A stretch of DNA of 57,336 nt, filler included, from Sphacelaria rigidula (lineage: Eukaryota): assembly GCA_964200075.2 (NCBI GenBank). It is 8 parts of 8 records of this genome, joined end to end, with 100 filler letters (N's around TTAATTAATTAA, not from the genome) between each part and the next. Parts side by side here need not be neighbours in the genome. Positions count along the whole stretch, not along the records: positions 50,258 to 57,336 come from CAXNAA020016598.1; 7 more parts are not named here. One strand, 5' to 3'. The position numbers and the translations under genes are program-made. Shown here in pieces: positions 5,982-57,336 of this stretch (position 1 is the stretch's first letter; every line of letters begins with the position of its first letter). The notes below the pieces were generated by a model, which saw only the letters and a program-made list of their open reading frames with translations, ran no database searches and was not told the origin of the DNA.

Positions 5982-6289
5982 GCACCCCCCCAAAGTCCGC
6001 ACTACTCGAAGTAGAACGCGAGTTTGACAAAACAGTAGACAACAACTATCATGTTTGCTACCTTTGTCCCCCCGGTAGTGACACACAACCTTGTACTGTC
6101 ATGTTTCACAAACATGATGACGTGCACAATCTTGAACATCGACACTCAAGGACAATGTCTAAAGCGAACTCAGGGATGTCAACCACTCTTCAGCGGTAAT
6201 TTCCACGTAAGTATTCTCACACAAAGCAAACATGCCCAGTATAGTACCATCGCAACCAGTAGCATTCGATATCATCATTTTGTAAAGCT

Positions 6290-7050
6290 TCGTACCATAC
6301 TTTGCCTGCGAACGTGCTCGCACCTTTTTACTTAGTCCCAACTGCCGCAGTTCAGATTTTACAAATTGCGGGGCTCCGTCCAAAATGTTTTCCAGAGGCT
6401 CCCACGAGTTTTCATCTTGGCCAAATCCGACGCACTCTACATGTACATAAAATCCATCTCCTGTTTCGTCCCCAGATATACCGACAATAGCCGCCATCTC
6501 GAACTCGCCTTGTGCAAAAGCATACTGGAACACCTCCTTAACATCAGCTGTAGTCTTCAGCTCCTTGTCCGCATAAAATCGAAGGCGGGCGACATGAACA
6601 TCCTTTACCTCACCATTCACGATGTTCTGTACCCCGTACACATGTTGTTGTTCCGCTGTCACAATCCGCTAAGGTCCCGTCCACGTACTCACAAGCTTTG
6701 GCGTAGTTCCCGAACGCCTCACCCTCGCCGCCAGCACGTAATCGCCCACCGCAAAGTTAGGGAGCTTCCCCTTATTAGCCACACGTCTCTGTAGATCGCG
6801 GTTCTTGTCGACACGCTGCGCCACCTTCTTGTGCAACTCTTGCTGAGCCTCAAGGATTGACGTCACCTGTCGCCTCAAAGCGTCTTCGTCAAGCACATCG
6901 ACGCTCCATTCGCCCCCAGTTGACGACGCCAGAGTAGAGAAACTGGTGCGCGGTGCCCGGCCAAACATAACATGGTATGGCGTGCTAGCATAGCACTCTC
7001 GGGAAGCAGTGTTCAATGCCCACTGCACTGCAGGTACCAAACTCACCCAT
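6290..7050 (-). mobile_element. Ty3/Gypsy remnant: integrase C-terminus + chromodomain
   Basis: VPAVQWALNT...TPYHVMFGRAP, KLVSTWTGP, VHVARLRFY, then chromodomain-like VHVECVGFGQDENSWEPLENI; frameshifted; cut by the contig end. Confidence 0.9.
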
Positions 7051-11700: not shown

Positions 11701-13776
11701 ATGCGAAGTCTCTTGAGGCCTCACATCGTCGCTCATTGCATTATGCATGTTCCCAAATTCCTCTCGGCAGTGGGTGCCTGAAAAGCAACCAGCAGTGAGT
11801 TAAGAAGTTGGAAATCGAACGATCTTACTGCTACTCTGAATCGACCGGACTCGCAGTCAAGAGTACCGCTCAAAATCTTCGACGACATTACATGCTCAGC
11901 ACTCGAGCACCCTTCCTATCCCACCGCCGCGCGACACGAACGTTTTCTGAAATGTGGTGGAACTGTCATACCGAAGTCTTGCCTACCGGAGTATATATAG
12001 ATATACAAATACGTATTTTATGGCTACAGCAACTATGAACAGGAGGGGAAATGCCAAAAATCACCTCACCCCTTACGCGTTTCACATTTATGAGGACAAA
12101 TCTCTTCTATTGGGAAAATTCTCCGCAGAACAGCAACGAGTGAACCCACATCAATAGGCGCGCACTTCCTACAGCAGCAAGGCCAGTCAAGCATACACCC
12201 GTGCCATTTTCATGGTACGGGCCGCGTTCACATTGACAATTATAATACCCGATGCTACTCGCACAAGGCGGACGCAACTCTGAGCAGGCGGTCATCCGAC
12301 GTATCCCTTCTCACCCCTCTTCACCACCGCAGAAGCAGGAGTGTACTGATGCACTGTGCTGTGCTTCCCTATACCGTTCACGCGGGCCAAAAAAAATCAT
12401 AGGACTGCACATTACACGCTTTGCTCGGATACAAGCATTTTTTTTCCCTCTCTATTTCAACACGAATTCGCTGCCGCGAAGGTCCAACCGACAACACCTA
12501 GTTTGAGTACATACACTTCCCACCAGTCAAGACCGCATAGACCGAAAAGAGGTCACAACTAAATACGCCCACCTACGGGGCAGAGACAGCTACTGTAGCT
12601 CGCTTGCATCACGACGGGGCCGAAGCAATGCAGCGCGAAAGAGCTGAGTCAAATCAAAACCAAATCAAATCACACTGAGTACCACCAATGCATGGGCAAA
12701 CCACGACTACAGTATTACAGACGTACTACATGGTGTGCACTGAGGCAGACCTTTGGCGCATGAACTACTACGTTATACCAGTAGAATCGTGCACCGAGGA
12801 AACCAACGGCGCCCTTCAATGGCATCTACAATCTGCTAGTACCTATCTCTAGCCTTGTGGACTACAGAGAGCCACATTTCGCATTGTGGGTATACAGTGT
12901 CGCGAAAATAATCCCCAGGAAATCGGATGCAAGGGATCAAAAAGCCAGAAATGGTGCATCGAGCGTCACAAATGTGAGGGTACACATATTCATTCTCCAG
13001 ACCAACTGAGTGAGCGACCGCGACCAGTTCATTTTTCGGGCGCCTTCCACTCCTGGTTGATACTACAGTAATATTTGCAACGCTGATCGTTTTTACGAGT
13101 AGCTCCAGGTGTTCGGTGTTCTGTGTGCGGGCGTGATGCCTGAATGCATGACCGACGTGTCAAAAATCTGACTAAAGCACAACGACATACTCTCCTCGCA
13201 CACACGCTTGAACGCCTCGCACACACGCTTGAACGCCTCGCACACACAAGCAGATACCACCATAAAAAATCTACGTAGTGAAGCACAGTACAATATCCCC
13301 CCCCCCCCCGATGGCCGTGCGTGTTCAAGTTCACGTATTTCTCCATGTCTACCACAGACAAGATCTACGCATTGCATCCGCTACACAAGAGAAGCCCTTG
13401 ATAAAACAAAACAAAACAAAACACAACACAACAAAACAAAACACACATAAACCAGCAAGCAAGCAAGAAAAGAGCTCACGCGCACTATCTGCAACGCACC
13501 CCACCTCTTGACCATAAAAAACATGAAAAAATATAAAAATATGTATTGAAAAAAAATATATAGCAGAATCCCGAAACGAACAAAAATAAACACTTCGCGT
13601 TTGCTGCCGGATTGCAAGACACACAACCGCCCACACACATAAAAACATACGCGTATCGGTGCTTTGAAATTCCCCCCCGCCCCCCGACTAAACGAATGAA
13701 AATAACAAAAAGATAAAAAAATGAAAACAACAAATAAAAACAAAGAAATGGAAAATCAGAAAAGTACAAGAATAAG

Positions 13777-13813: not shown

Positions 13814-14227
13814 ATGTCTGGCTAGACAGCGCAAGCACACGAAGCGAGAATCTCCCGCATCACGAAAAAAAAAAGCCTTTTTTGTTGTCGATGGGCGTCA
13901 TTCCTGCCCCGTCGTAGCTCAAGCGCCCCCTTTGCCGCAGCGGCGTCGCGAGCAACAAGTCTGACGATATCTTTCTGCGGTGTTTTACACCTCCGGGTGT
14001 TACGCTTCTACGTTCCCCCTCGCCAGGGGCATTCCAGGGCTTTGAAGCTCTTCTGTTCGGGCTCGAGGGGATCGACAGGGTCGGCGTGACGGCTGGTTCT
14101 TCCGCTATGCCAAACCCTAGTCTCGCCTCTTTTGGTCGCGTGTGTGTTCGCGCACCAAGCCGGCCTGCAGTGGGAAGAGACAGTCGCCTGCAAAGAGCGC
14201 GGACGGGGGTGGGGCGGGGGGGGGGGC

Positions 14228-14260
14228 GTACTCATTTGTTGCTTGCCTTTGTCATTTGAC
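14228..14260 (-). mobile_element. LINE 3' end (ATGAGTAC family) at contig end
   Basis: Reverse of ...GGCAAGCAACAAATGAGTAC abutting the G-rich tract 14205-14226. Confidence 0.85.
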
Positions 14261-21006: not shown

Positions 21007-21336
21007 CAATTCATAATAATCATAATGTCTGTAACAGCAAACGACTTTGATGTGCGTGTTGTACGATTATCTCCAAACCATAAGTAAGCCTGCCTGTTAT
21101 TAACACGTTCGCTCGTTCGTGATGAGCACCGGTGCGTGAATGAAGAGTCGAAATATAATGACGATGTCGTTTTTATCTGCGACGTCGATGTATGCCGTGC
21201 CTCGAAACGCCCATCTTTAAGTGGGACAACCGGTTTCATTCACTTGCTATTATGGTTGAATCGAAATAATGGTGGAACCTCGTTTCTCTACCTGCCTTTC
21301 GCTTGAAAGTCGGTGAGGGGAGGGGGGGGGAGGGTG

Positions 21337-21440
21337 GTACTCATGATCCTCCATGCCATTGTCACAGGACCACTGACCTCGCATCCCTACAATGCCGGGA
21401 CGGAGCACGCTGGGTTTTCGCCAGACCAGGCTCGCACTCA
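21337..21440 (-). mobile_element. Non-autonomous retroposon (LINE-tail family B), 3' end
   Basis: Matches 34488-34580, 50258-50317, 55915-55965 and 56600-56780; ends ATGAGTAC next to a G-tract on the plus strand. Confidence 0.75.
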
Positions 21441-26329: not shown

Positions 26330-28540
26330 GATTGGTTGCTGCCCGACGTCTTCCGTTGGAGAGTCTGCGCAGTCTCATGCCGCGCGCCATCAGCATCGAC
26401 AGCACAAGGGCAGAGGACGAGGTGATCGGTGTGGTGGCGGCGGCGGATCCTCCGGCGGTGGAGGGTCGCAGTCGAGTTCTCAGCAGCAGCAGCAGCATGG
26501 GTCTGGTTCTGGATCCGGCGCCGGCGTACTGCTGCTCCGCAACGGGCGGTGCAGGTGGGACCGACTTCTACAGTGTCGGCACTGCGCCGGCGCCGGTGGC
26601 GGCGCCGGTGGCAACGCCAGCAGCAGCGCCAGGCACGATGCCTGCTGATGCGCTGGTCGGAGTTTGGCCGACTTCTTGGTCTGCTTGCTGGTGATCGTAC
26701 CCGCCGGCGGTGCTGTTTGAACCTGCCGGGGCGTCTTCGCCTGCGCAGCTTGCGCAGCCGTAGTGTCACTCGGGAATAGCGGCGCGTCGGTCGGCGGATG
26801 AAGCACCAGTGGAGTTTGCGGATGTGTACGTTCCTGCGGAGCCTGTCTTCCAAATCAACGGGAGCGTGGAGCCATTGCAGTTCGGGCTATGTTGGATTCT
26901 GGCGCCCGCTTCACGAGTCATCTAAGTCTGTCGGTGCAGATTGTAGAGATGTTGGAGCGTCTTCTCCCGGGTGTGCCGCTGCGCATTCTGTTTTCGCTCG
27001 GGGCACGGCAGACTGTCACCGCGTTGGGTCGGCATGCGTCCGTCACGGAGCGTACTGTTTCGTTGCAATTGAATTCCACGACTTCCTGAGGGTCGGCGCC
27101 GTTACCTCCGATCTCGTTTGCGATCATGCGGGGGTCGGATGGCCTTATTTTTCCGGGGTTGCGGACGCTTCAGAATCTTGGAGTCGATCCGTGCGAGCGG
27201 TTGTGGGACTCCATGAAGACGCGGATGTCTCCGCCTGGTCCGCGCGTGGAGACGCCCGCCTTTTTGGGCAGTCGTCGCTTGAGTTTGTCGATGGATGCTT
27301 TTCAGGAGGCTGGGGGGCAGGTGACCGACGAGCGGGATGAAGCGGTGGAACGCTTAGTGGAGCAAAGCCCGGAGATGTCCATGGATCAGGCGGAAGAGGA
27401 GTCCGCTTGGAGGGTCGCGCTGGAAGAGAACGTGACGGATGCTGTGGCGAAAGGCCTCAGCTTGTCAAAAGCGAAGCGCCTGCGCGGCATCTTGCATCGT
27501 CGCGTCAATGCGTTTCGTCGTGCGCTGCGGGGCGATCACCCTGCGTGCGTGGAGCCCATGTGTGTTCAGCTAAAACCTGGGGCGTCCGCGGTGAAGACGA
27601 ATCCGCGGCGGTACGAGCCGGTGAAGTCGAGTTCGTTGGCATCGTGCATGGCGGCTCTTTTGGCGGTCGGGTTGGTGTTTAGGAATTTGCAGGCGGTGTG
27701 ACCCAGTCCGGCTATGGCGATCCCGAAGAAAGACTCGTTTTGCCTGGTAAACGACAACAAGGCAATGAATGAGCAGGTCGAGAAGCCGCCGGGTGTGATG
27801 CCCAACCAAGAGTCGGACACGCGTGACCTGATGAGTGCTCGTTTTTTTGGCAATTTGGACCTCCTCAAAGGTTACTGACAGATGCCGTTGGTGGAGGAAG
27901 CGCAGGAGATTTTCACAATCACGACTCCGTTTGGCTTGTTTAACCCGAAGCGAGCGCCGCAAGACGTGCTGAATGCCACGGCATATTTTCAAGGCATCAT
28001 GACAGGACGTCTCGTCGGTATAAAATGCAAGATTTGGGTGGATGATGTGCTTGTTTTCGCGGACACGGAAGACGATTTTGGAGACACGCTTGATGCTATC
28101 GTGGCTCGTTTAGAGAGTGTTGGTTTGTTTGCAGCTGCGCACAAGTGTACACCCTTCGCTAGTGAACTCGTGTGGTGTGGGAAAGTGTACTCACACGGAC
28201 GTATCTCATGACTCTGTCAGATTGGGAGGCTTGTGTAACATGGGGCGCCCGGAGACAACCGCAGAACACATGCAATTCTTGCTGGCCGTGAATTGGCTGA
28301 GTACCTCGATACCGCGTATGGCAGAAAACATAGCCCACTTGCGTTTTCCCCTCGAAGAACTCATGGCGGGTGCTGCGAGGCGGACGAAGCGTGTGGCAAA
28401 AAACCGCGCTTTTCCGCCTGTATCGTGGACGGAGGGCAGGCTGCAGGCGTGGGCGGCAGCGTAGGATTTGCTGGCTCACGCCGTGACGCTGTTCCATATT
28501 GTCCTGATTGTCAGGTGTTGATGTTTCCGGATGCATCTGA
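26330..28540 (+). mobile_element. Degraded Ty3/Gypsy pro-RT-RH remnant (same family as 43785-48783)
   Basis: MLDSGARFT (protease), LDLLKGY*QMPL, PQDVLNATAYFQ, WVDDV, LMFPDAS; many stops and frameshifts. Confidence 0.92.
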
Positions 28541-28620
28541 GGAGTCATCCTACGATAGGGGGGGGGGGGATTGGGTTGGACGAAAAACCAGGCTCATACG
28601 GGTGCCAGACATCCTTCCCC

Positions 28621-28720: not shown

Positions 28721-28755
28721 TGATCAAACGACCAAGGCAAGCAACAAATGAGTAC
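28721..28755 (+). mobile_element. LINE 3' end (ATGAGTAC family) at contig start
   Basis: CAAACGACCAAGGCAAGCAACAAATGAGTAC followed by a long C run. Confidence 0.88.
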
Positions 28756-28864
28756 CCCCCCCCCCCCCCCCCCTCCTCTACCGTAGGGTGACTCTGTAAT
28801 AGATCCATACCTGATCCAGTACAGTTTTGGTCTGTTGCATCGATTGACCATATATTGTTTAGGG

Positions 28865-33322: not shown

Positions 33323-34161
33323 CTGTTTCAAGTCCGAATAGACACATCGATCAGCAGAAGGGCATGGCGAGCGGGCGTAGGAGCGGGGGGAGCTTGGTCG
33401 GGATTAATTATCGCTATGTCGTTAGAGACTCAGATGAACACAGCCTTCTCGGGCTCGCAAATCATAGCGAGAGCTCTTGCAGCGTTCACCAGAGTGGTGA
33501 TCTTTAACACAGAGAGGTGGGTATCTTTTGGATCTGGCTTATGGAGTACATGAGGATAGCGTTCAGGATTTAACAATCCCTACAAACGACGAACTCCGAA
33601 CGAGTCTTGAGCAATGGTGTATATGCTCAGGTACCCTGAAGGGTACATTTGCGAAGACAAGTACCCATACGAAATATGAAGCCCCGGGAAATGTTTTGCG
33701 ATTCGTGTGTTACACATGCGCAGTGATCCAAAAACAAAACAGAGTTTTGGGTTGATGAATGACAAGAACAAGATGTAATCCACGAGGGGGGTGGGAGAGC
33801 AAAGTCGGGAGGTAGTCATATGCACGTACCGTAGCGGACGTTCTAAAGGCTGGGGGGGGGCACAATCGTCATGTTCCACTGATTGATGGTTGCAGACTAA
33901 ACTAACTGTACTGTGGATGTCACAGCTGACGAAGTTTGGAGCACAAGCTCTTGATAGGACACAAAACGTGAGCTACGAGCGGGTATGTACCAGCAGCGGC
34001 GGTGTACCAGGAGGCAAGATATGTACGGCGTATACATCCCCTGGGTGATTGTGTTTTGGGAAGCGAAAGCTTACACTCGGGGTATGGAATTGAGGGGGGG
34101 GGGGGGGGGGGNNNNNNNNNNTTCGTTTGTGGGGTGGGTGTGGATGGGTGGAGCTGAGAGT

Positions 34162-34197
<36 letters not shown>

Positions 34198-34487
34198 ACG
34201 TGCGGAGCAGAGTACCTCACCCTCCTCCAGGGTAACGCCCCCGAGTGTGAAGTCTTCTGCAATGCTTGGCACCAGGTTGGTGTCTGCAGTAAGTACCCTA
34301 CAGGGGTACATGGCACACCTACTATATTACGCCGACCCCAAATACCACCCCCGAGCGAGGATTTTTTGGATCCGAAGACTTGTCACCCGACGGTCTCATA
34401 CGCGGTACACAACGTTGTTGAGATGATACCGGAATCAGTCGAACTCGTATCTCCAGGGGGTACCAATGGAGGGGGAGGGGGGGGGGA

Positions 34488-34900
34488 GTACTCATGACCT
34501 TGCATGCCATTGTCATGAGACCATTAACCTTGTGTCCCTACAAAGCCGGGACGGAGCACGTTGGGTTTTCGCCTGACCTGCTCGCAATCACCAAGCGCGA
34601 ATCGCCGTGATGTATTCGGCGAGTCGCATGAAAGGGTAAGCTGCATCCTGCTGAGCTTGTTCGGCCCGAGCACAAACTGATCAACTTGCTACTGAATGAC
34701 AGCCTACAATGAGTTGTTGATTTATCTTGTGGTCTCACCACTCCCAGGGACAGTCACGGGTTACCCACTGCTTTATGTGGATGGCTCACCGTGTGAACAC
34801 AACGTGATACGATCATGCTCTTTGCGCGGAGTGGAGGTTCTTCACCCCGTACAAAGCGATCTAGCTCGACCACAATCATGGTTGCTTAGAAAACGCGAGC
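34488..34900 (-). mobile_element. Non-autonomous retroposon family B, longest copy
   Basis: Body matches 56600-56780; tail matches 21337 and 50258; G-tract adjacent to its 3' end; 5' boundary approximate. Confidence 0.7.
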
Positions 34901-35004
34901 GAAACAAAAAGTGGTAACCTGGTTTCCTGACTTACATAGTGAGTGGCACGTCTTCACTGCATCGTTGCCAACCGATGCCCACGCTTAAACCGGGGTGGGG
35001 GGGC

Positions 35005-35700
35005 GTTCTCATCTGTTGTTTGCCCAAGTCTTTTGACCATTGACCACGCATCCTTTTCAAGACGGAGCACCGTCCCTACTCCTGATAGATACACCTCCAA
35101 CATTTGGGCGCTCACCACGTTTCTTTCATACATCACACAAACAGGGTTTACATATCTTGTCCCCTTCCTGTTTTGCCGTCTCTGGCCACCATCTATCTCC
35201 TGGTATAGCCATCGTTTTCTCGCTACAATCAAATACATCAAAACTTTTCATGCCACCTTTGTTTTCACCCCACATTCCTTCCCCAAAAACGTAACGTTCC
35301 TCCTTGTATAGATCATACTCCGCCACCATATGAGTTCTACCTTCTACTGCTTTACCACAGGGGCAATTCTGTGCATCCAATCCCTCCTCCTCTCGACTAC
35401 TGGTTTATCCCTCTCTTCTTTCTGGCAGGTCCAGGTCTCCCACCCGATGACACAGTTTCCTTTTTTTTGCGAAGTCCATCGGGTCATCCAGACATGGTTT
35501 CATTCCTATCGCCTCTCTCGACTCCCCGCATATCTTCAGGTGCTCTACCTCGTCTACTCTGCGTCTGAGCGGTCATTTCCCCCTTATTTCTATCATGTCT
35601 CTTACGGTCGTCTTGCACCTGCCACATTCACCTGTAGACATCATCTTGTCTTGGTTTCGTCATACGTCCTTCCACACTTCTCGATTACGCTACCCCACGT
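35005..35700 (-). mobile_element. 5'-truncated LINE (ATGAGTAC family)
   Basis: CPCGKAVEGRTHMVAE zinc-knuckle region and GDRWWPETAKQEGDKICK, homologous to 53524-54036. Confidence 0.9.
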
Positions 35701-35749
35701 TAGCCAGGGGGAGAGGGCGTTAGCCAGGGGGGAGGGGGGGGGGGCAGGC

Positions 35750-35799
35750 GTACTCATCTGTTGCTTGCCTTCGTCGTTTGACCCTTGACCACCCATCCC
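35750..35799 (-). mobile_element. LINE 3' end at contig end
   Basis: GTACTCATCTGTTGCTTGCC preceded by a G-tract. Confidence 0.85.
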
Positions 35800-43078: not shown

Positions 43079-43175
43079 CCTACTCCTAGTAGAGACACCT
43101 CCAACATTCTGGCGCTCATTACGTTTCTTCAAAAGCTCAGTAAATTGAGGGGAGGGGAGGTACTCATTTGTTGCC
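43079..43175 (-). mobile_element. LINE 3'-region fragments at contig start
   Basis: CCTACTCCTAGTAGAGACACCTCCAACATT and GTACTCATTTGTTGC next to G-rich DNA. Confidence 0.75.
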
Positions 43176-44234: not shown

Positions 44235-45074
44235 ATGGCTCAAGCGGCGGCAGCGCCGCTGGTGTTAGGTGAGCCACTAGACCCGCCAAATTATGGCGAG
44301 TTGTGGACAGAGGAAGCATCACGAGTTTTTTATGACAAACATATCGACTATTTAGAGAGGTTGCATTTGGCAAATGCACAAAGAGTCATACGGCATGCCA
44401 GGGTGAGCATCGGACAACGTATCCCAACATATATTCACCGATGCTTTGAAGGCATGTACAAGGACAGTTGAGCTATGACCCCCGACGAATGGCAAGATGC
44501 TGTGAAGCAGCATGCCGGGTACACCACAACCGGCGTCAAGCATGGCACTGCGCGGGCTGCAGCAGACCTACGTAGAGTTCTTACTATGCCGCAAAGCGGT
44601 GGAACATCCGTCAAGGATAGAGCGATGATGGCCAATTCATCAATGGAAACCTTTTTTGCTGAAAACCTCACGGTGCAAGCCATGTACCGTGGGGAGGACA
44701 GGAGCTGGTTGACAGGCCCGGCCGAGTCGACTTCCACAGCTTTGGTGGACGGAATTTCGCCTTCGGAGTTCAAAGCGTGTGTTAAAAGCGTACCAACGTA
44801 TGTAGACAATTGGAAAAATAATCCGACGGTGGTGTTCAACAACATATTTGATGCCGCCGACCACTGGAAGTTCAACGAGGCGCATTGCCAGCGCGGCTCT
44901 GCGGCAGATGCAGGTGGTGCGCGCCGCAAGCAACAACAGCAACGGAAACAGCAGCCGTCTTGGCGAGCGTCGTCCACTCGCGCGTGTTACAACTGCGGCA
45001 ACAACGGACACCAGATTCAGGACTGCCCCAAGCCTCGCGCTCAAGGCGCTGCTCAGGGCAATGCACGAGATTAA
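44235..45074 (+). pseudogene. gag: gag with CCHC zinc knuckle
   Basis: One in-frame TGA at 44469; CYNCGNNGHQIQDC knuckle. Confidence 0.85.
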
Positions 45075-45519
45075 TCAGAATCTCGAGGCGGTCGTCACGG
45101 TGGACGGGGCCGTGCCAACCAGGGACGCGGGCGCGGCGGCCGCGGTAGTAAGCAATCGGCGGCGGATGGTCGTTCCTCCGCTGCTATTTCTTCCACTACG
45201 TCATCAGGTGGTGGCTCTGGATTTTCTGGTTCGTCCGTGTCGGGGCGGGCAGTGTACGTGGGAAATGCAAATACTTCGGTGGGGAGTGCTGGAGCGAATA
45301 CTTCACAACCCCTCGGCCAGGCAGGATCCGTGTCTGGTGCATCTTCTACTGCTGCGGTGGCTGTAACAGCACCGTCTGCATATTCGGCGACGTCGTCTGG
45401 GTGGACCGCCGATTTTCAACTATCAATCTCAAGAGGTGGAGCGCAGCCCTGGCGTCAGGTGACTCTTGGTACCGACCAGGGTTCTTCGGCAGGCGTTGTG
45501 CCTGTCGATCGCAAGGCTG

Positions 45520-45900
45520 AATGTTTGCGCGCAGATATTTTATTGCCTGGTTCCGTAGGTTCGTTCATGGCCCGCGTTATTCTAGATTCTGGGTCCGCGC
45601 TCACGCCGATTGGCGTGGGGTTGCTAGAACAAATCTCTTGACGGCGCTCAGCTTCAGATTCGGTTCGAAAACGGACCGCAAACGGCACAGATCGCCACGG
45701 GTGCTCCCATGACGGTTACACAAAAAACCGTGCCGATTGCTGTCAGCGTGCGTACGCCGTGGGGGGCTGTGGAGTTGCAGCCCATCACGTTCGCTGTCAT
45801 GCCCGGCAGGGACAACGTGATAATGTTTGGGATGGCGACGATGAAGGAGCGTGAGATTGATCTATATCCGCTGGCGTTGAAGGAGTTACGTCCGCACCCT
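45520..45900 (+). pseudogene. Aspartic protease, frameshifted
   Basis: RVILDSGS active-site motif; later VIMFGMATM in a different frame. Confidence 0.8.
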
Positions 45901-46218
45901 GCGCCGGTGCAAACCAGCGTGGAAAAACCCCAGAAACCTTGCTGCAAGGCGTGTGATCGTACCCATACGGTCATTTCAGAGTGTCAATGAGGAGGAGGCT
46001 CCTGCGGATGCAGCGGTGGAGCACTTGGTCGATCGGGGGCCCGACATGTTCATGGACCCAGCGGAGGAGAGAGGTGCAAGAGAACGTGCGCTAGAGGATA
46101 GCGTGCAGCAGGCCGAGCAGAAGGGCCTGAGCGCCGATGGCGCACAGTGTCTGCGTGATATTTTGGCTCGTCGCGTGGATACATTCGTCGCGCGCTGCGT
46201 GGTGATCCGCCAGCGCGC

Positions 46219-47808
46219 GTGGAGCTCATGAGGGTGCATATCAAGCCACAGGCGAAGGTTGTGAAGGCCAAGCTCCGACGATACGATCCGGTGAAGACCA
46301 GGTGGTTTGCCTCATGCGTCGCAGCTTTGGTGGCGTTCGGTTTAGTGGTTAGGAACATCCAGGCTGTGTGGGCGAGTCCGGCGATGGCGGTGCCGAGGAG
46401 GGACACATTCCGTTTGGTCAGCGACTATCAGGCGGTGAATGAGCAAGTGGAACAGTCTCCGGGAGTGATGCCAAGCCAAGAAGACATGCGGGAGTTTCTG
46501 GGAGCCCAATGCTTCGGCAAGTTGGACCTGCTACAGGGGTATTGGCAGATGCCTCTGGCGCTAGAGGCTCAGGAGATCTTCACGATCGTCACGCCTGACG
46601 TCTTTTTTACGCCTACTCGTGTCCCACAGGGCGTGTTGAACGCCACGGCGTATTTCCAAGGTGTGCTGACCGACAGTTTGCGAGGTCTAGAGTGTACAGT
46701 GTGGGTGGATGACGTTTTCTATTTTGCTGAAACCGAAGAAGCATTTTCAGCTTTGCTTGACGAAATTCTTGGCCGCTTGGAGAGTGTTGGTCTGTTCGTC
46801 GCTGCGCATAAGTGCACCTCTTTTGCTCGCGAAGTGGTTTGGTGTGGTAAGGTGTACTCCAAGGGTACTGTTTCGCATGATCCCGTCCGCATCCAAGCTT
46901 TTAGCAATATGCGACGTTCTCACACCGCTAGTGAGCTGATGCAGTTTCTGCAGGCGGTGAATTGGTCGCGGACTTTGCTCCCGCGCATAGCGGAAGTAGT
47001 TGCGCCGCTTCGTGTGTTTCTGGAACAACGTATGGTGGGGGCTTCGCGTCGGACCAAGCGGGTGGCGTGTAATCGTAATATCCCGGAGGACGCTTGGACG
47101 GAAAATCGTGTGCGGGCATGGCGTGCTGCGCAAGATTTGGTGGCGCAAGCGGTGCCGTTGCATCATCCTCGTCCAGGGTTCGCTGTTCTGATGTTTCCAG
47201 ATGCTTCGGATTTCCACCAGGGTAGTTTTTCAACGCAAGTGCCTCTCGCCGAGTTCAGAAGTGGCATTGCGCTCGAAAACATGTCACACGAACCGTTGAC
47301 GTTTCTGAGCGGTAAGGTTAAGGGTTTACAGTTGCGGTGGGCGACAGAGGACAAAAAAGGTTTCGCGATAATCAATACATTTCGAACGCTAGAGTACTTG
47401 CTTTGGGGTGGTGTTCGCATTTTCGCCGATCATCGCAATCTGGAATACGTTTTTAACCCCAAAGGGTGTGTCACGTCGGTGACGAAGGCCATGGCACAAC
47501 GGCTTGAAAGTTGGAAAGGTGTGCTCGGCCAAGATCTGTGTGCCATTGAACACATTCCTGGAGAGCGCAATTTTTGGGGAGATTTGTTGTCTCGCTGGGT
47601 GAAGGTTCCTACCGTGCCTGTTCGTTCTATTGCAGTGTACAATCCGTGTGATGCCGATTATTCGCTGCCCTCGTTAGATGTCATTCGTACCGCGCAGCGC
47701 AAAAAAGTCGGCGACGGTGTTCATTCTTTCCCTACAACTTTCGGTCAAGCTGCCTTGGCTGACGATGGTTTGTTTCGCGTGCGTGTTGGTTACGGTGATG
47801 TTTTGTGA
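46219..47808 (+). CDS. pol: Reverse transcriptase + RNase H open frame (529 aa) of the Gypsy element
   Basis: LDLLQGYWQ, PQGVLNATAYFQ, WVDD, FPDAS, DHRNL, GERNFWGDLLSR. Confidence 0.93.
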   Translation: MELMRVHIKPQAKVVKAKLRRYDPVKTRWFASCVAALVAFGLVVRNIQAVWASPAMAVPRRDTFRLVSDYQAVNEQVEQSPGVMPSQEDMREFLGAQCFGKLDLLQGYWQMPLALEAQEIFTIVTPDVFFTPTRVPQGVLNATAYFQGVLTDSLRGLECTVWVDDVFYFAETEEAFSALLDEILGRLESVGLFVAAHKCTSFAREVVWCGKVYSKGTVSHDPVRIQAFSNMRRSHTASELMQFLQAVNWSRTLLPRIAEVVAPLRVFLEQRMVGASRRTKRVACNRNIPEDAWTENRVRAWRAAQDLVAQAVPLHHPRPGFAVLMFPDASDFHQGSFSTQVPLAEFRSGIALENMSHEPLTFLSGKVKGLQLRWATEDKKGFAIINTFRTLEYLLWGGVRIFADHRNLEYVFNPKGCVTSVTKAMAQRLESWKGVLGQDLCAIEHIPGERNFWGDLLSRWVKVPTVPVRSIAVYNPCDADYSLPSLDVIRTAQRKKVGDGVHSFPTTFGQAALADDGLFRVRVGYGDVL

Positions 47809-50257: not shown

Positions 50258-50317
50258 GGCATTGTAGGGATGCGAGGTCAATGGTCTGATGACTATGGCA
50301 TGCATGATCATGAGTAC
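50258..50317 (+). mobile_element. Family B retroposon 3' end at contig start
   Basis: GGGATGCGAGGTCAATGGTCTGATGACTATGGCATGCATGATCATGAGTAC + ACCCCCTCCCGCCC. Confidence 0.78.
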
Positions 50318-52508
50318 ACCCCCTCCCGCCCAGGTATGCATGTCACGCAAAACTGCATCCTCGAGTTGGAACTCTATAGTTGATTCCAGGCCAAAGTTCT
50401 TCACAAACGGGCTTGAGTACAGAGAGACCGAAAAAGGTGTTCTGTGCGGGACTTCGGTCGCAGCGTATCCTTGTTGGCTTTCCGTTTTTCCCTGTACCTG
50501 TCGGTGGGTAGTGCAGGCCACTTATTTTTTGTTCACCAGCGGATCGTCATGAGCGCCTGTAAAGTGGACGGTACGATATTATCGCGGTGCTTCGGGTACG
50601 GCTATGTCTTGCAGTTGTTTGATGTTCAAGGGTCGTGGCGTTGGCTCATCCATGGCCGTTACACCCTGCATGTCTTACGGCTCACATGTGCGCTTACGGG
50701 TGATGCTGTGTTGGCCTGTTTTTTGTTTGTTGTTCACAAAGCCAGATCCATGAAGGAGGAGGGGGAGTAGGGCACGCACACTCCATCAATATATCTCATC
50801 ATTGGTTGATCTTACATTAGGGGTAAAATAATATTGCCTGCAAAACAGGAGTATCTGAGTGAGTTCTGCGCACACTCTTAACACTGCGAGCTTCGCCTCG
50901 GAACAGTTTCGCCTGCTGGTAATCCAGGGACATCCAGGGGTTTCCTGTGGGCAGGTTTTTTTTTTTGGGGGGGGTAGGGGGGGGATACCTGTCCCCAACA
51001 CAACGGGAAGGATCACAAACGTAACCGTGTCTGTGTGGACGTTGCCAAAGGGAAAATAGAAGTGGGGCACCAATTCCGGAGATGCGGAAGCGACCATGTT
51101 GACTGCGTTAAAAAAAGTCAATTTGATCACCTTGTTCCCCTACAGAACAACTACAGAACTACGCCGCAGCCTGGCCTCATTCGCCTATTTGGGTAACGAC
51201 CAGTTAACCATCGAAAACCCCAAGCAATAAGAGACGGGTTTTGTTCAGTTCGTCGTCTTCGCGCTCTGCCTGGCTCCTGTTGTGCTGTCAAGGTAGCTGC
51301 ACACTGTAGTGTCTGTTGTGCAACACTACGCAAAGATAGAAACAGCGTGCAGAAGATTGTGTTGAGTGTAGAGCGAGGACATGCTGATTGTTTCATACCC
51401 TTGTATTCGGCCGTCATTGATGGAAAACGGTTTCGTGACGATATATAAGCGGCAGCGGAAGCAGCAGCACCACCAGGTGCAGACCGCAATTCAATTAGAG
51501 TTGACACAATGTGATTGGTGTACAAGATCGAAACGCGCTCGAGGTATACCGGCACACTGCGAATGAAGACTACATGAAGAAAGATGATGATGCATGCTTT
51601 GCGTATATCGTAGTAGTGAGTTGTGGCGGCTGCCTGCGTACACCACTTCCAAAACATGAAAATGTGTACCCCCACGAAAACAGTCCCAGCGAAGGCAGTC
51701 ATACCGGACACGCTTCACTTGCGGCTCATAACCAGATCTTCGGCACTACTTTTTGCACGGATGCTCAAGATGCACACATGCTCGCGTAGCAACTCGTCTT
51801 GTCTTCCAAAAAAGCAGCGTTTCTGAAGCCCCAAATGTGGGGGAGTGGCGGCCTGAGGGGTCAGCGGGAATATTCGTCTTGTTAAAAGCGAGAGAGCACA
51901 CGTGTTGTTAGGGTGAACACTGCTTGAAAGGCCTCGAGCGGTTTCTTCTTGCTTCAAGCAACGCGTTGAAGTCAGGCGGTGGCTCCACCCCCTTTACAGG
52001 ATAAGGGTATGGTAGGGACGGTAGTAGTGGAGTCAACCAGGGTTCGGATTCAGGTCGCAGTCTTGTGTGGGAAAAGGGGTTGATGGCGTTGCGGCGGAAC
52101 TTGTGCGAGGAGCTGTCATGTAAAGCAAAGCTCTAATATGTGTGTGGGTTGCCTTTATTTGCTTTAGAGCGAAAATGTTCTCTGTTTCTCTGCTTGCAAT
52201 GTCGCATACGTCACATGGAACAATTGTACAGGAGAACAAGATACAGATTGTCAACAGTAGCCAATACATGGCGCTGTAGTTGTGTATGCACGCTATAGCC
52301 ACAGCGTCCGTCCCCTTAGGGTGGGTAGGCCACAGATCCAGCTCATGATCGAGCAGCAGGAAGATTTTTCACTTTAACGAGGTACTGTAGTACAAATCTT
52401 CAACTCAAGGACAACATCAATCTTCTTCTATGTAGCACGCACGAATGTCATGTTCTTCAACTGTGAGATGGCGAAGGGGTGAAAAATCAGTGACCCCCCC
52501 TCCCCTCG

Positions 52509-54040
52509 AAGGGAAGAAGGTGCTATGATGCTAGATGGGGAAATATCGAATTATTTTGATGTTTCACAAGAGCTTGCATGAGGATGTACGTCATCACCCA
52601 CTTTGCTCAAGGTATTTATTGATAACTTGATATTTAGAAAGCAGCAAAGCAAGGGGTCAAGGTGTGTGAAGATATGGCATCAGGATCGATGCTCGCGGAT
52701 GATTTTGTGGGGATTTCAGAAACACCAGAAGGATTACAGAAACAGATGGACAAAGCGCTAGAATACACTAGGAAATGGAGTGTGACAGCGAATGTCAACA
52801 AATGCGCGGTACTCGTCTGTAACGAAGATGTGCAAAATTCGGTAGAGACCAAATAGAGGTGGGGAGAAGAGGAACTGCCGATTGTAGACATACCTTGGCG
52901 TAGAGATCTCAAGAAACTGTTCTTGGGATGCACACATGAAAAAAGTAATAGAAAAGGGTAAGGCACAGATAGGAAGGATGGGCTTGATCCTCAGAGACTC
53001 GCACCTAGATACTAGGATATATATATATATATATATATATATATCCTGATGAACGTGATCGGACCAAAGCTGGAATATGCAGCAGAAGTATGGAAAGGGA
53101 ACGTGAAGTTGGTGAAGAGGTTGGAAACAGTACAGATGGCAGAAGCTAAGAAGATACTTGGATGCTCGAAACAACGCGTAGTACAGCACTGAGAGCAGAG
53201 TTGGGAATGTATTCACTTGAAACAAACAGAGGTATGAGGAAATCGAAATGACAATATAGCGTTAAGAACATGCATAGGAAGACATTCTCAGCTATAGTTG
53301 ATGAGGCTGCATGGAAGAAAATGACGAAGGGGCGGGCTGGAATAAGGTGGGATAAAGAAGTCGAGAAAATATGGAAGAAGTTCCGAGGAAACCAAGACGA
53401 AACACTATCCATAGGTGAAGGCGCGGGGTACGAGACAAAGGTGAGAGACACGATCGTAATAAGGGGAAAAGCAGCGCTCAGGCGTAAAGTAGAGGAGGAA
53501 AACAACTAGAGATATACGGGGGGTTGAGAGAAAGGGTTAGGATGAAAACATATTTGCATGGCCTCATGGACGCGGCGACGAATCTGAACCTGCGATTTCG
53601 GGTGGGGGAGCTGGACCAGCCAGAAAGAAGAAATAGATTCGCCAGTCGTCGAGAGGAGGGGGAGGTAAATGCACAGAATTGCCCCTGTGGCGAAGCAATA
53701 GAGAGCAGAAGTCATATAGTGGCGGAATGTGAACAATACAAGGAGGAACGGGACGTGCTAGAGGGGGAAATGCAGGACGTGAACAAAAGTGGCATAAGAT
53801 CGTTTGATGCATTAGACAGTAGGGAGAAAACGATGGCTATACTAAGAGATATATGGTGGCCACAGACGGTGAAACGGGACGGGGATAAGATATGTAAATG
53901 TTTTTTGTGCAATGTATGGAAGAAACGTAATGAGCACCGAGATGTTGCAGGTGTCTCCATTAGGAGTAGGAACGATGCTCCGTTTCGAAAGGGATGCGTG
54001 ATCAATGGCCAAACGACTAAGGCAATCAACAAATGAGTAC
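52509..54040 (+). mobile_element. 5'-truncated LINE: RT 3' half + CCHC C-terminal domain
   Basis: *GCTSSPTLL, MLADDFVGISETPEGLQ, YLGV, PKLEYAAEVW, CPCGEAIESRSHIVAEC; ORF stop lies inside the terminal ATGAGTAC; C-rich flanks on both sides. Confidence 0.93.
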
Positions 54041-54801
54041 CTCCCCCTCGCCCCTACTGAGGTATAGCTTGTGTCCTCCCACCGCGGGACTCCTGTAGAG
54101 TTGGCAACCCGCTTTGACTCACACGAGCTTTTGCGACTCATGATATATACAGATCGGCGCCGAAATGTTCTTTCCCTTGCAGTATGTGCAGTATGTGCAG
54201 TATGTACAAGGCATGGGCAGAAGAAGATTCGTTTTGTCGCCTCCGGCCCCTGTACGGTACAGAGTCGAACGATTTCGGGTTTATGGCGGGTTCCGGTGGA
54301 AGTGGTCGTTATGGGCGATGTTTCATCAGCGTAACGACCAAGACTGGTCAATGGTAAAGGATACTTGTAAATTGCTGCTTTACACAACTTTGTAGGACTA
54401 TACCAAGACAGGGTACAATAAAAGACAAGCCAGAATCGGAACATTGCGACAAGAGACTGTGATGTCCTCGGAAAGCAGAGGCATATACCCCCTGCCGCTC
54501 TGGGCCCGTTTGAGGTATTGAACAGCTTGGCTGGGCTTTCCGTAAGTTGGGTAGTCCTCAGCACCATTTCCATAGTAGGGTGGGACACGCACTGCGTGTC
54601 CTCGGCATAACGACGGGTGTGACGACGAGGTCACGCCTTCTTGCGCTGCGCAACATAACTCGCTGACCGCTGTAACCCAAAAAGGTCAAATGCGACTTCC
54701 TGTACCTGTTTTGCAGCCGATGAATGTATATATTACAGACATGCATGCCACGTGAATCCGTCCTCCGACCACTTCCCCTGCCTACCTCAACAATGAATTA
54801 G

Positions 54802-55269: not shown

Positions 55270-55890
55270 CAAGGTGGAATGAAATCGTTTGATGCATTAG
55301 ACAGTAGTAAGAAAACGATGGTTCTAGCAGGAGATAGATGGTGGCCACAGACGGCGAAACAGGACGGGGATAAGATGTGTAAAAGATTTTTGTGTCATGT
55401 ATGGAAGAAACGTAATGAGCGTCGGAATATTAGAGTTGTCTCTATTAGGAGTGGGAACGGTGCTTCGCCTCGAAAGGGATGCGTGGTCAATGGTCAAACG
55501 ACTAAGGCAAGCAACAAATGAGTACGCCCCCCCCGGAGATATACGGGTGGTTGAGAGAGGGGATAGGGATGAAAGCATATTTGCATGGCCCCATGGACGC
55601 CNNNNNNNGATGCGTGGTCAATGGTCAAACGACTAAGGCAAGCAACAAATGAGTACGCCCCTCCTCCCCACCTTCTCGGGACGTGGGAAACATGCCAATG
55701 CCAAGGACGAGCTTGCCAGCCATAGTTGATAACACTATATGAAAGAAAGTAAGGAGATTGCAGGCTGGAAGAAGGTGGAATAGCGTAGTCGAGAGATGTG
55801 GAAGGGCATTGGAGAGAACCAGGACGAAATAATGTCCATAGGTGAGTGGGGGGGATACAAGCGACCAAGGGAAGCAACAAACGAGTCTCC
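55270..55890 (+). mobile_element. Head-to-tail stack of truncated LINE 3' ends separated by C-tracts
   Basis: Termini at 55518, 55649 and 55881 each followed by C-rich runs; GDRWWPQTAKQDGDK peptide. Confidence 0.85.
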
Positions 55891-56272
55891 CTCCCCCCCC
55901 CTCCCCTTTTTGGGCTTGGTCTGGGGGAAAATCCGACGTGCTCCGTCCCGGCGTTGTAGGGATGGCACCCCTGGGAGGTTCTTGTCAGTTGGCGAAAAAA
56001 GCTGTAAATCAGGCCACGCACTGCGTAAGCTAGGCAATCAGGTCACCTTTTTTTTCGCTTGCATAATTCTTGCGGTAACCACTGGGGGCAGCGTAAAAAC
56101 AAATCTGGATACGTAGGCCCCAAGATCCAAAATTTGAGTTCCTGGGGGGGGGGGGGGGGGGGGCGGCACCCAGCCGTCCGTCCTCCGGTTAATTGCCGAA
56201 GCGTTGGCATGGGGCGGATGCGGTCAGCTGCCGTGGACAGAAGTCCTTGACAAGGGGCGTCCACACCTGAGT

Positions 56273-56601
56273 GAAGCCATCGGGACAGAGCGGGCAAGGG
56301 GCAGAAGCAAACATATAAACCCCGCGAAACCCACCAGACTTTGCGGTTTTGTGTCAGGGTTTATTGATCAACTTCTTCCAACAAAATTAACGAAAAGAAA
56401 AACAAAAACAGGAAAAATTCGAGAAAATGCCCTCCGGCATCTGAGGCCATCGGGACAGAGCGGGCAAAGAGCAGAAGCAGATACAAACCCTGCAAAGCCC
56501 ACCAGACGTTTCGGTTTTTGTCGGTGTTTATTGATCATTTTCTTGCAAAAACATGAACAGAAAAAATCAAAGTGGCGAGACCAGAAAATGAAGCAGCTCA
56601 C
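56273..56601. repeat. ~169-bp tandem duplication
   Basis: GA.GCCATCGGGACAGAGCGGGCAA...CCCACCAGAC...TTTATTGATCA at 56273 and 56442. Confidence 0.88.
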
Positions 56602-56780
56602 TGGAGGCGGTCATCCAAATGCAAGATGATTAGCACGCGTCGAGCCGGACAGTCTTAGCAGGATGAAGCTGACCCGTCACGCGACTCGCCGAAGACATCA
56701 CGCCGCTTCGCGCTTAGTGATTGATTGCGAGCCTGGTCCGGCGAAAAACCGGCGTGCTCCGTCCCGGTTTGATAGGGATG
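56600..56780 (+). mobile_element. Family B retroposon fragment
   Basis: Matches the reverse complement of 34540-34700. Confidence 0.7.
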
Positions 56781-57336
56781 CGGTACTGCGATGCACGCCG
56801 GTTTTTCGATGGGTGCTGGGACGCGCACTCCCCCACCTCCTGAAAAACATCCAATTCCGGCGGGTACTGCGACGTGGACCGATTAAGCCCTTGAATAACA
56901 TTTCTCCAGAGACGAACGAAGTCGGCCTGCCGTAGGTGCGGGTGCTCGTTTCACTCCAGCAAACTTTGCGACCGGCTCGACCGTCGAAATCGGTGTTTCG
57001 ATGGTCGACCTCAAAGCTGTCCCTCATGGGTAATCCCTTTTTCCGTCTGAGCTCTACTCAGTTCCTTGGGGCAACAGCGTAGACTTGCGTAGGTGCGTAA
57101 ACAATTCGTAAACATGTTTTGCGTTGAATAGGTGAGGACTATGGTACAGTATTTTGGCATGTGCTGCACCTTGCAAACTAGGGAAATGGAAGACGGGGAG
57201 AGATTGAGTGGTCTGCCCGGCTGTGCCATGGGACGTTGAGGCTTGTTGAATACTATTCGAGCTGGGCCAGCAGTGCATCCCGCATTTGCATCTCTAATCA
57301 TAACTTGTCAAGTTTACCAAATCAGCTCGACTCGAA

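Follow-up and report, generated by a model that had tools for sequence, protein, structure and literature searches.

A LINE followed by C tracts in Sphacelaria rigidula, its 3′-sharing companion and their probable insertion at C runs

We have analysed a stretch of 57,336 nt from Sphacelaria rigidula (GenBank assembly GCA_964200075.2), hereafter the window, in which a long interspersed nuclear element (LINE, family F1) recurs, each of its ten 3′ ends being followed by a C-rich tract, together with a companion element, F2, that shares its 3′ end. The window consists of eight separate pieces of about 7080 nt each, joined by artificial linkers of the form N44-TTAATTAATTAA-N44; the ten LINE copies represent several loci, and features in different pieces are not genomic neighbours. 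Five piece ends lie inside the LINE or F2 (14260, 28721, 35799, 50157 and 50258), a pattern in keeping with short-read contigs that break inside an abundant repeat. Four of the ten LINE 3′ ends (14228, 28741, 35750 and 50100) are cut in this manner 33-58 nt upstream, and the cut is there the end of the piece and not a 5′ truncation. The LINE copies of the window, all decayed (dead) and mostly 5′-truncated, and the linkers are as follows; percentages are identities to copies found outside the window, and P0002 is a longer protein relative described below.

52494 to 52508, plus strand: C-rich tract of 15 nt at the 5′ junction of the longest LINE copy
52509 to 54040, plus strand: longest LINE copy (family F1), 5′-truncated, matching about residues 857-1360 of P0002 (tblastn)
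53018 to 53043, plus strand: (TA)13 microsatellite within the longest copy, breaking the reading frame
53488 to 54036, plus strand: open reading frame (ORF) of the LINE, C-terminal, 182 aa, stop included
54034 to 54036, plus strand: stop codon TGA; the element ends 4 nt further on, at 54040
54041 to 54057, plus strand: C-rich tract at the 3′ end of the longest copy; 12 of its 17 nt are C
55270 to 55534, plus strand: copy B1 with its tail, 5′-truncated, 85-88%; tail of G and C8 at 55526-55534
55535 to 55672, plus strand: copy B2, beginning directly after the tail of B1; N7 gap at 55602-55608; C-rich tail of 16 nt at 55657-55672
55684 to 55906, plus strand: copy B3, old (70-79%), internally deleted, with a decayed end; C-rich tail of 18 nt at 55889-55906
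34992 to 35697, minus strand: copy A1, 5′-truncated, 74-77%; tail of 13 nt at 34992-35004
35727 to 35799, minus strand: copy A0, last 50 nt only, cut by the piece end, 90-92%; C-rich tail of 23 nt at 35727-35749
43147 to 43174, minus strand: copy D1, last 15 nt of the LINE only, with C-rich tracts on both sides
43079 to 43133, minus strand: copy D2, LINE fragment about 16 nt after the tail of D1, cut by the piece end
14201 to 14260, minus strand: LINE 3′ end, 33 nt, cut by the piece end; C-rich tail with C11 as longest run
28721 to 28778, plus strand: LINE 3′ end, 35 nt, cut by the piece end; tail with a run of C18
50080 to 50157, minus strand: LINE 3′ end, 58 nt, cut by the piece end, 95-98%; tail of GTG and C12
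7081-7180, 14261-14360, 21441-21540, 28621-28720, 35800-35899, 42979-43078 and 50158-50257: the seven linkers, spaced by 7179-7180 nt

The longest copy is interrupted by frameshifts and stops besides the (TA)13 insert, and its blastn match with the external copies begins at 52515-52517 with 76-82% identity. Its C-terminal ORF of 182 aa is 67% identical to P0002, a protein of 1360 aa encoded on a metagenome contig, and 69% identical to the tail of a chimeric Sphacelaria rigidula gene model. P0002 holds, in one ORF, the domains Exo_endo_phos (residues 170-392), Exo_endo_phos_2 (279-414) and RVT_1 (740-989); the endonuclease and reverse transcriptase (RT) architecture is read from this full-length relative, the window copies covering only residues ~857-1360 or less, and it predicts a single-ORF LINE with an endonuclease of the apurinic/apyrimidinic (APE) type. 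Two proteins of Ectocarpus sp. CCAP 1310/34 match P0002, P0009 with 54% identity and P0015 with 71% over part of the length; the window ORF itself is 38% identical to P0009 in an alignment that reaches the last residues of the ORF. More distant relatives (23-28%) are unnamed APE-RT proteins of fish and a ctenophore. The closest named relatives that we found are brown-algal (Sphacelaria, Ectocarpus), and the host lineage of the LINE is most likely a brown alga or a close relative.

The 3′ end of the element is sharply defined. Allowing up to three mismatches, the terminal motif GCAACAAATGAGTAC occurs 11 times in the window against 1.71 expected, a number reached by none of 100 shuffles; one of the 11, at 27052, has neither LINE context nor C tract and was dropped as a chance occurrence. 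The ten positions reported by the initial annotation are all borne out, with plus-strand coordinates shifted by 7, to the start of ATGAGTAC. A C-rich tract comes after each of the ten LINE 3′ ends: 8-15 of the first 15 nt are C, and the tract extends by a fixed rule over 9-27 nt in eight copies and by eye over 20 and 23 nt in the other two, while the same terminal 8-mer outside the LINE (six sites) is followed by 1-5 C in 15 nt. No A run follows any of the ten ends in the window or the four ends of the external copies, and the element thus lacks the 3′ poly(A) or A-rich tail of poly(A)-dependent (L1-type) LINEs, as the initial annotation had said. Its statement that the stop codon lies inside the terminal motif holds as well: the longest copy ends at 54040, the 3′ untranslated region (UTR) is 4 nt long, and the terminal order is TGA, GTAC, usually a G, and then (C)n. 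Very short 3′ UTRs are a known trait of the RTE clade.

This configuration is not restricted to the window. Searches with terminal patterns of 22 and 21 nt yielded four further copies, three loci in marine metagenome contigs and one, among prokaryote genomes, in a contig of a supposed bacterial bin (L004). All four lie on unrelated contigs and end in the same motif, after which come a G and 7 to 13 consecutive Cs; the scan of viral sequences gave no copy, the bin holding L004 has no other copy than L004, and none of the four contigs reaches the 5′ end of the LINE. Copy B2 is 91-100% identical to the external copy L002 and 84-98% identical to L001 and L004. When contigs of four public runs were aligned to the last piece of the window, 882, 454, 813 and 74 contig records continued past 55534, the end of the B1 tail, and their consensus has a run of 14 to 23 more Cs until a different base appears, after which the sequences diverge. 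The sequence downstream of the 3′ end is C in the external copies and in the contig records alike; independent assemblies agree, and a C tract after the LINE 3′ end is general in this genome. Summed contig depth on the LINE parts ranges from 10^5 to 6.6x10^6 against ~70 in unique parts (run X1), a sign of great abundance and not a copy number. Downstream of the longest copy, at 54177-54210 (plus strand), a 9-nt repeat has three units in the window and one more, after 54177, in contigs of runs X3 and X6.

C-rich sequence is also found on the other side of the copies. Seven 5′ junctions could be placed using the external copies as guides, and within 30 nt upstream of six of them lies a 10-mer with at least 8 C, a property of 1.3-1.8% of window positions. 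The longest copy abuts a C-rich tract of 15 nt, and the sequence around it is single-copy by contig depth (~70) up to the junction; in run X6, moreover, short truncated copies are immediately preceded by a C tract in 33 and 11 records. These junctions support insertion at C runs. The initial annotation had gone further and paired CCTCCCCTCG (52499-52508) with CCTCCCCCTCG (54040-54050), strings that are indeed found at these positions, as a target-site duplication (TSD) of 10/11 nt with a 1-base indel. We compared by local alignment the matched 5′ and 3′ flanks of four copies with cross-paired flanks and with 2000 shuffles. The matched flanks of the longest copy score 18, the 5′ flanks of the other copies with its 3′ flank score 18, 16 and 18, its own 5′ flank with the 3′ flanks of the others scores 20, 26 and 22, and a score as high as the observed one is obtained in 246 of the 2000 shuffles; the other three copies give the same picture. 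The proposed duplication is consequently indistinguishable from two unrelated C-rich tracts, and of the targeting claim we retain the C-rich 5′ junctions and the arrays described hereafter, but not this detail. In two copies, A1 and B3, the unique bases following the C run look alike by eye, which is at most suggestive of a TSD.

Copies of the LINE form three head-to-tail arrays joined by C tracts, namely B1/B2/B3, A0/A1 (A0 lying upstream of A1) and D1/D2. Among the joints listed from the public contigs, the tail of the LINE passes into the head of F2, the tail of F2 into the head of F2, and the tail of F2 into a truncated LINE, each type being represented by 11-33 contigs in runs X1, X3 and X4. 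The members of an array differ in identity: B3 stands at 70-79%, B1 at 85-88% and B2 at 91-100% to L002, and A1 at 74-77% beside A0 at 90-92%. Since array members are unlike in age, the sequences favour successive insertions into existing C tracts as the way in which arrays were probably built, over one template-jump event. Two observations in the same regions deserve mention on their own. Many contigs join to 53976 and to 55469, where no more than the terminal ~57-65 nt of the LINE come after a C tract, and among the joints listed these ends begin at nearly the same base each time; they may represent a preferred stop of reverse transcription or a separate mini-element. Just upstream of A1, at 35698-35735 (minus strand), a 14-nt unit made of a C run and nine unique bases is repeated directly with six C-rich bases in between, and this may be the trace of an insertion of which nothing but a tail remained.

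The companion F2 was met in the window as the following sequences.

50258 to 50331, plus strand: F2 3′ end, ending …CATGAGTAC, with a C-rich tail of 14 nt
21312 to 21440, minus strand: F2 copy, cut by the piece end, with a C-rich tail of 25 nt
34468 to 34742, minus strand: F2 copy of at least 255 nt, with a C-rich tail of 20 nt
56571 to 56782, plus strand: F2-type copy without canonical 3′ end in the window

The sequence of the last of these continues, in public contigs, into the F2 3′ end (joints 56765/56767 to 50258-50263). An alignment of F2 to the LINE spans the terminal ~50-75 nt and has 25 invariant columns (79-83% identity over 52 nt by blastn); upstream of this shared end F2 gave no LINE match in tblastn with P0002 or in blastn with the external copies. 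F2 appears non-coding, and an element of this kind sharing the 3′-terminal sequence of a LINE is what distinguishes a stringent-type LINE with a partner resembling a short interspersed nuclear element (SINE). F2 is presumably such a SINE-like partner, which would borrow the LINE enzyme through the shared end and be mobilised in trans. Upstream of the F2-matched 56571-56782, and in the same high-depth repeat block, there is a tandem duplication of ~125 nt with 82.5% identity (56272-56396 and 56442-56564, plus strand). A repeat of ~120 nt (~70% alike) occurs at 34880-35004 (minus strand) and 55965-56090 (plus strand), each time following a C run, in the former case behind LINE copy A1 and in the latter behind an F2-like fragment; it is either a further C-run-associated element or part of a larger composite.

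How unusual is such an element? Among LINEs that target simple repeats, Kibi and Koshi (Tx1 clade) and Waldo and Mino (R1 clade) have on either side the same simple sequence that forms their own end, and occur in tandem; their targets are di- to tetranucleotide repeats and not a homopolymer, and they belong to other clades. The comparison with these elements made by the initial annotation holds as an analogy of behaviour (simple sequence on both sides, identical to the element end, and tandems), but the named relatives that we found are brown-algal APE-RT LINEs. For L1, it is established that the tail, a homopolymer, base-pairs with a complementary run at the nick, that the TSD begins with the tail base and that 5′ truncation is frequent. 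The human and mammalian L1 follow the same tail-target logic as we propose here, but the present element has C instead of A, a single ORF, a 3′ UTR of 4 nt and no A run at any of 14 ends; the L1 case is touched on in PMC6007223.

A closer model is offered by the RTE clade, for which the first base of the TSD has been found to correlate with a microsatellite-like 3′ tail and tail-target pairing has been proposed, in the sections of the paper that concern us (Nishiyama and Ohshima 2018, PMC6007223). The RTE-clade LINEs and SINEs described there share with our element an APE-type single ORF, a repeat tail instead of poly(A) and 3′-sharing SINE partners. Their tails, however, are repeats that contain T or A, (GGTTTT)n and (CAA)n for instance, with a microhomology of 1-2 bases, whereas our element has a C-homopolymer tail and C-rich stretches of 9-27 nt on both sides.

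The nearest parallel comes from the curated transposable element library of Ectocarpus (Genome Biol 2025, PMC12477816, Supplementary Material 3). Its entries give RTEX-1_Ec32 as ‘single EN-RT ORF; (C)n 3'’ with a ‘C-rich’ TSD, RTEX-2_Ec32 as ‘(C)n termini/TSD’, and RTEX-N1/N2_Ec32 as non-autonomous, ‘60 bp 3' end 83%’, ‘can be present in tandem’, with a ‘C-rich’ TSD; in part 1 of 3 of that file, RTE-X alone among the LINE families has a (C)n terminus. The main text of that paper, in the portions relevant to these families, does not discuss the C tail (‘c-rich’ has no occurrence), and the RTE-X passages of PMC11203168, PMC10294476 and PMC9942856 make no mention of tails. A search for other literature on C-tailed LINEs returned nothing relevant, a weak result given that ‘poly(C)’ is unsearchable and ‘polyc’ also matches polycistronic. 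The specificity for C tracts, which the initial annotation had supposed undescribed, was thus already on record, at least in those library entries. Like RTEX-1/2 and RTEX-N1/N2 as catalogued there, the window element is brown-algal, with a single EN-RT (endonuclease-RT) ORF, a (C)n 3′ end, C-rich flanks, 3′-sharing partners and tandems, the exact TSD being the one item of the set that is not demonstrable; it differs in species or family, its ORF being 38% identical to P0009 and the RTEX consensus being compared by description only. We therefore set the LINE, by description and homologues, beside the kind catalogued in Ectocarpus as RTE-X (RTEX-1/2_Ec32), a link suggested by host lineage, Ectocarpus homologues and an identical set of unusual features. 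What is new here is another lineage and the detail of the junctions, not a new kind of element.

Starting from the observed anatomy, the C tracts at both ends, the arrays and the shared 3′ end, we infer a C tail on the RNA, its base pairing and a nick site, and think it reasonably probable that C tail and C target belong to one mechanism resembling that of L1 with A replaced by C. The initial annotation had posed the targeting of C tracts and the C-tailing of the RNA as alternatives, while they are most likely two faces of the same process. In the framework of target-primed reverse transcription, the endonuclease would nick the strand carrying a G run; the RNA, with …UGA GUAC (G)(C)n as its end, would then pair with the exposed G run and prime the synthesis of complementary DNA, and a staggered second nick would duplicate a target beginning with the C run. 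The outcome would be a 3′ C tract in which tail and target are merged, while the 5′ end would have a C-rich tract right at it or a few bases upstream, the C run taking the role that poly(A) and the T-rich nick site have in L1. Each new C tract would in turn become a landing site, which would give rise to head-to-tail arrays, and F2 would presumably be copied by a LINE enzyme recognising the shared 3′ end. The proposal fits the RTE-clade model as outlined in PMC6007223, in which the TSD begins with the base that is repeated in the tail.

Several points weigh against this reading. In four of the six cases the C-rich 5′ flank is simply the tail of the copy upstream, so that only the longest copy and D1 supply 5′ evidence independent of a neighbour; the 5′ junction of B1 has merely CACCC; an exact TSD is not demonstrable, matched flanks doing no better than cross-paired or shuffled ones; and the contig joints, with short sides of 18-37 nt, are flagged as weak. 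The C run that would have pre-existed at any target is deduced, no empty site having been observed: among the joints listed, none skips 52509-54040, and the longest copy is present in runs X1 and X3, as their records bridge its 5′ junction. A conserved RNA structure at the shared 3′ end is not supported (one of 14 pairs covarying over 11 ends with RNAalifold; z = -0.01 for a single-sequence fold), the RTE-X assignment draws on the note in the Ectocarpus paper and on sequence homologues and not on labelled reference sequences, and the (C)n end of the transcripts is likewise something that we infer. The shared flanks, the B1 junction and the elusive TSD are what one would meet if the tract were nothing but a tail, borne or made by the element, with insertion sites otherwise random and the 5′ tracts resulting from copies piling up. 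We consider this unlikely: the head-to-tail piling up would itself need explaining, the longest copy abuts its 15-nt tract although it sits in single-copy sequence (~70 depth), D1, of which 15 nt remain, is C-rich on both sides, and the curators of the Ectocarpus library record C-rich TSDs in the entries cited above.

Conversely, the element might insert strictly into pre-existing long poly(C)/poly(G), with no tail on its RNA and all Cs belonging to the target. In this respect, the window holds 15 C or G runs of at least 8 nt, up to 33 nt long (C33, C22 and C20 among them), that are unattached to any repeated 3′ end found in it, against a chance expectation of ~1 at window composition by our own estimate; examples are given here.

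588 to 609: unattached C/G run
13297 to 13309: unattached C/G run
28558 to 28569: unattached C/G run
34094 to 34111: unattached C/G run
34164 to 34196: unattached C/G run
56144 to 56163: unattached C/G run

N10 gaps at 620-629 and 34112-34121 adjoin long G runs. The unattached runs may be landing sites, as strict targeting would have it, but they may equally be orphan tails of aborted insertions similar to D1. The two tracts flanking the longest copy, similar in length, also suit this explanation; B1 and the target deduced for B3, on the other hand, have just 3-5 Cs beside unique sequence, and an RNA without terminal C would need another way of priming, for which reasons we find strict targeting improbable.

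A further objection concerns the arrays, which would tell nothing about the target if they arose in single events, in which the RT, on reaching the 5′ end of one RNA, switched to the C tail of the next. The precision of the head-to-tail junctions, such as B2 directly after the tail of B1, and the many truncated copies starting at one position ~57-65 nt from the end (53976, 55469) would be in keeping with such jumps. Nevertheless, array members differ widely against the same reference (70-79%, 85-88% and 91-100%, the last for B2 to L002, with 84-98% to L001 and L004) and the oldest member is the downstream one; even allowing that the fragments are short and possibly of different subfamilies, which weakens the argument from identity, we judge single-event arrays quite unlikely. 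Least probable of all, to the point that we give it little credit, is a tail made anew by an RT adding untemplated G to the nicked strand (or by C-tailing of the RNA) before copying, the tract being neither inherited nor target: the varying length and interruptions of the tails, the extra Gs at the 5′ junction of D1, which show that untemplated bases occur, and the lack of a 3′ UTR to template anything past GTAC speak for it, yet slippage and decay equally predict varying tails, the C-rich 5′ flanks are left unexplained, and direct evidence is nil.

Coming back to the reading in which C tail and C target form one mechanism, a C-homopolymer tail is rare among LINEs, and the question arises as to how, with neither polyadenylation nor a 3′ UTR to rely on, the element makes and keeps it. 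Host polyadenylation cannot make the tail, because it is C instead of A; read-through of the donor tract, slippage or untemplated addition could each maintain it. With no host polyadenylation and a 3′ UTR of 4 nt, the tail is possibly built anew each time, and one may speculate, at rather long odds, that the enzyme of the element makes it at every insertion, by adding untemplated G to the nicked target or by slippage on a few terminal Cs, in which case the LINE and its companions may be the main source of the large genomic excess of poly(C)/poly(G) and each insertion would lay down the next landing site in a self-seeding cycle. Be that as it may, the LINE is a likely source of the poly(C)/poly(G) tracts in which this genome abounds, and such tracts break short-read assemblies, the piece ends and the N10 gaps being located there.

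Besides the LINE and F2, the window contains one recognisable retrotransposon of another type and two ORFs of minor note.

44472 to 47808, plus strand: Ty3/Gypsy-type retrotransposon, with a zinc-knuckle gag at 44472-45074 and RT and RNase H at 46159-47808
6159 to 6668, minus strand: chromodomain-like ORF, a weak match below the Pfam cut-off
27090 to 27701, plus strand: ORF with no Pfam match, which by eye has a short motif in common with the start of Ty3/Gypsy pol

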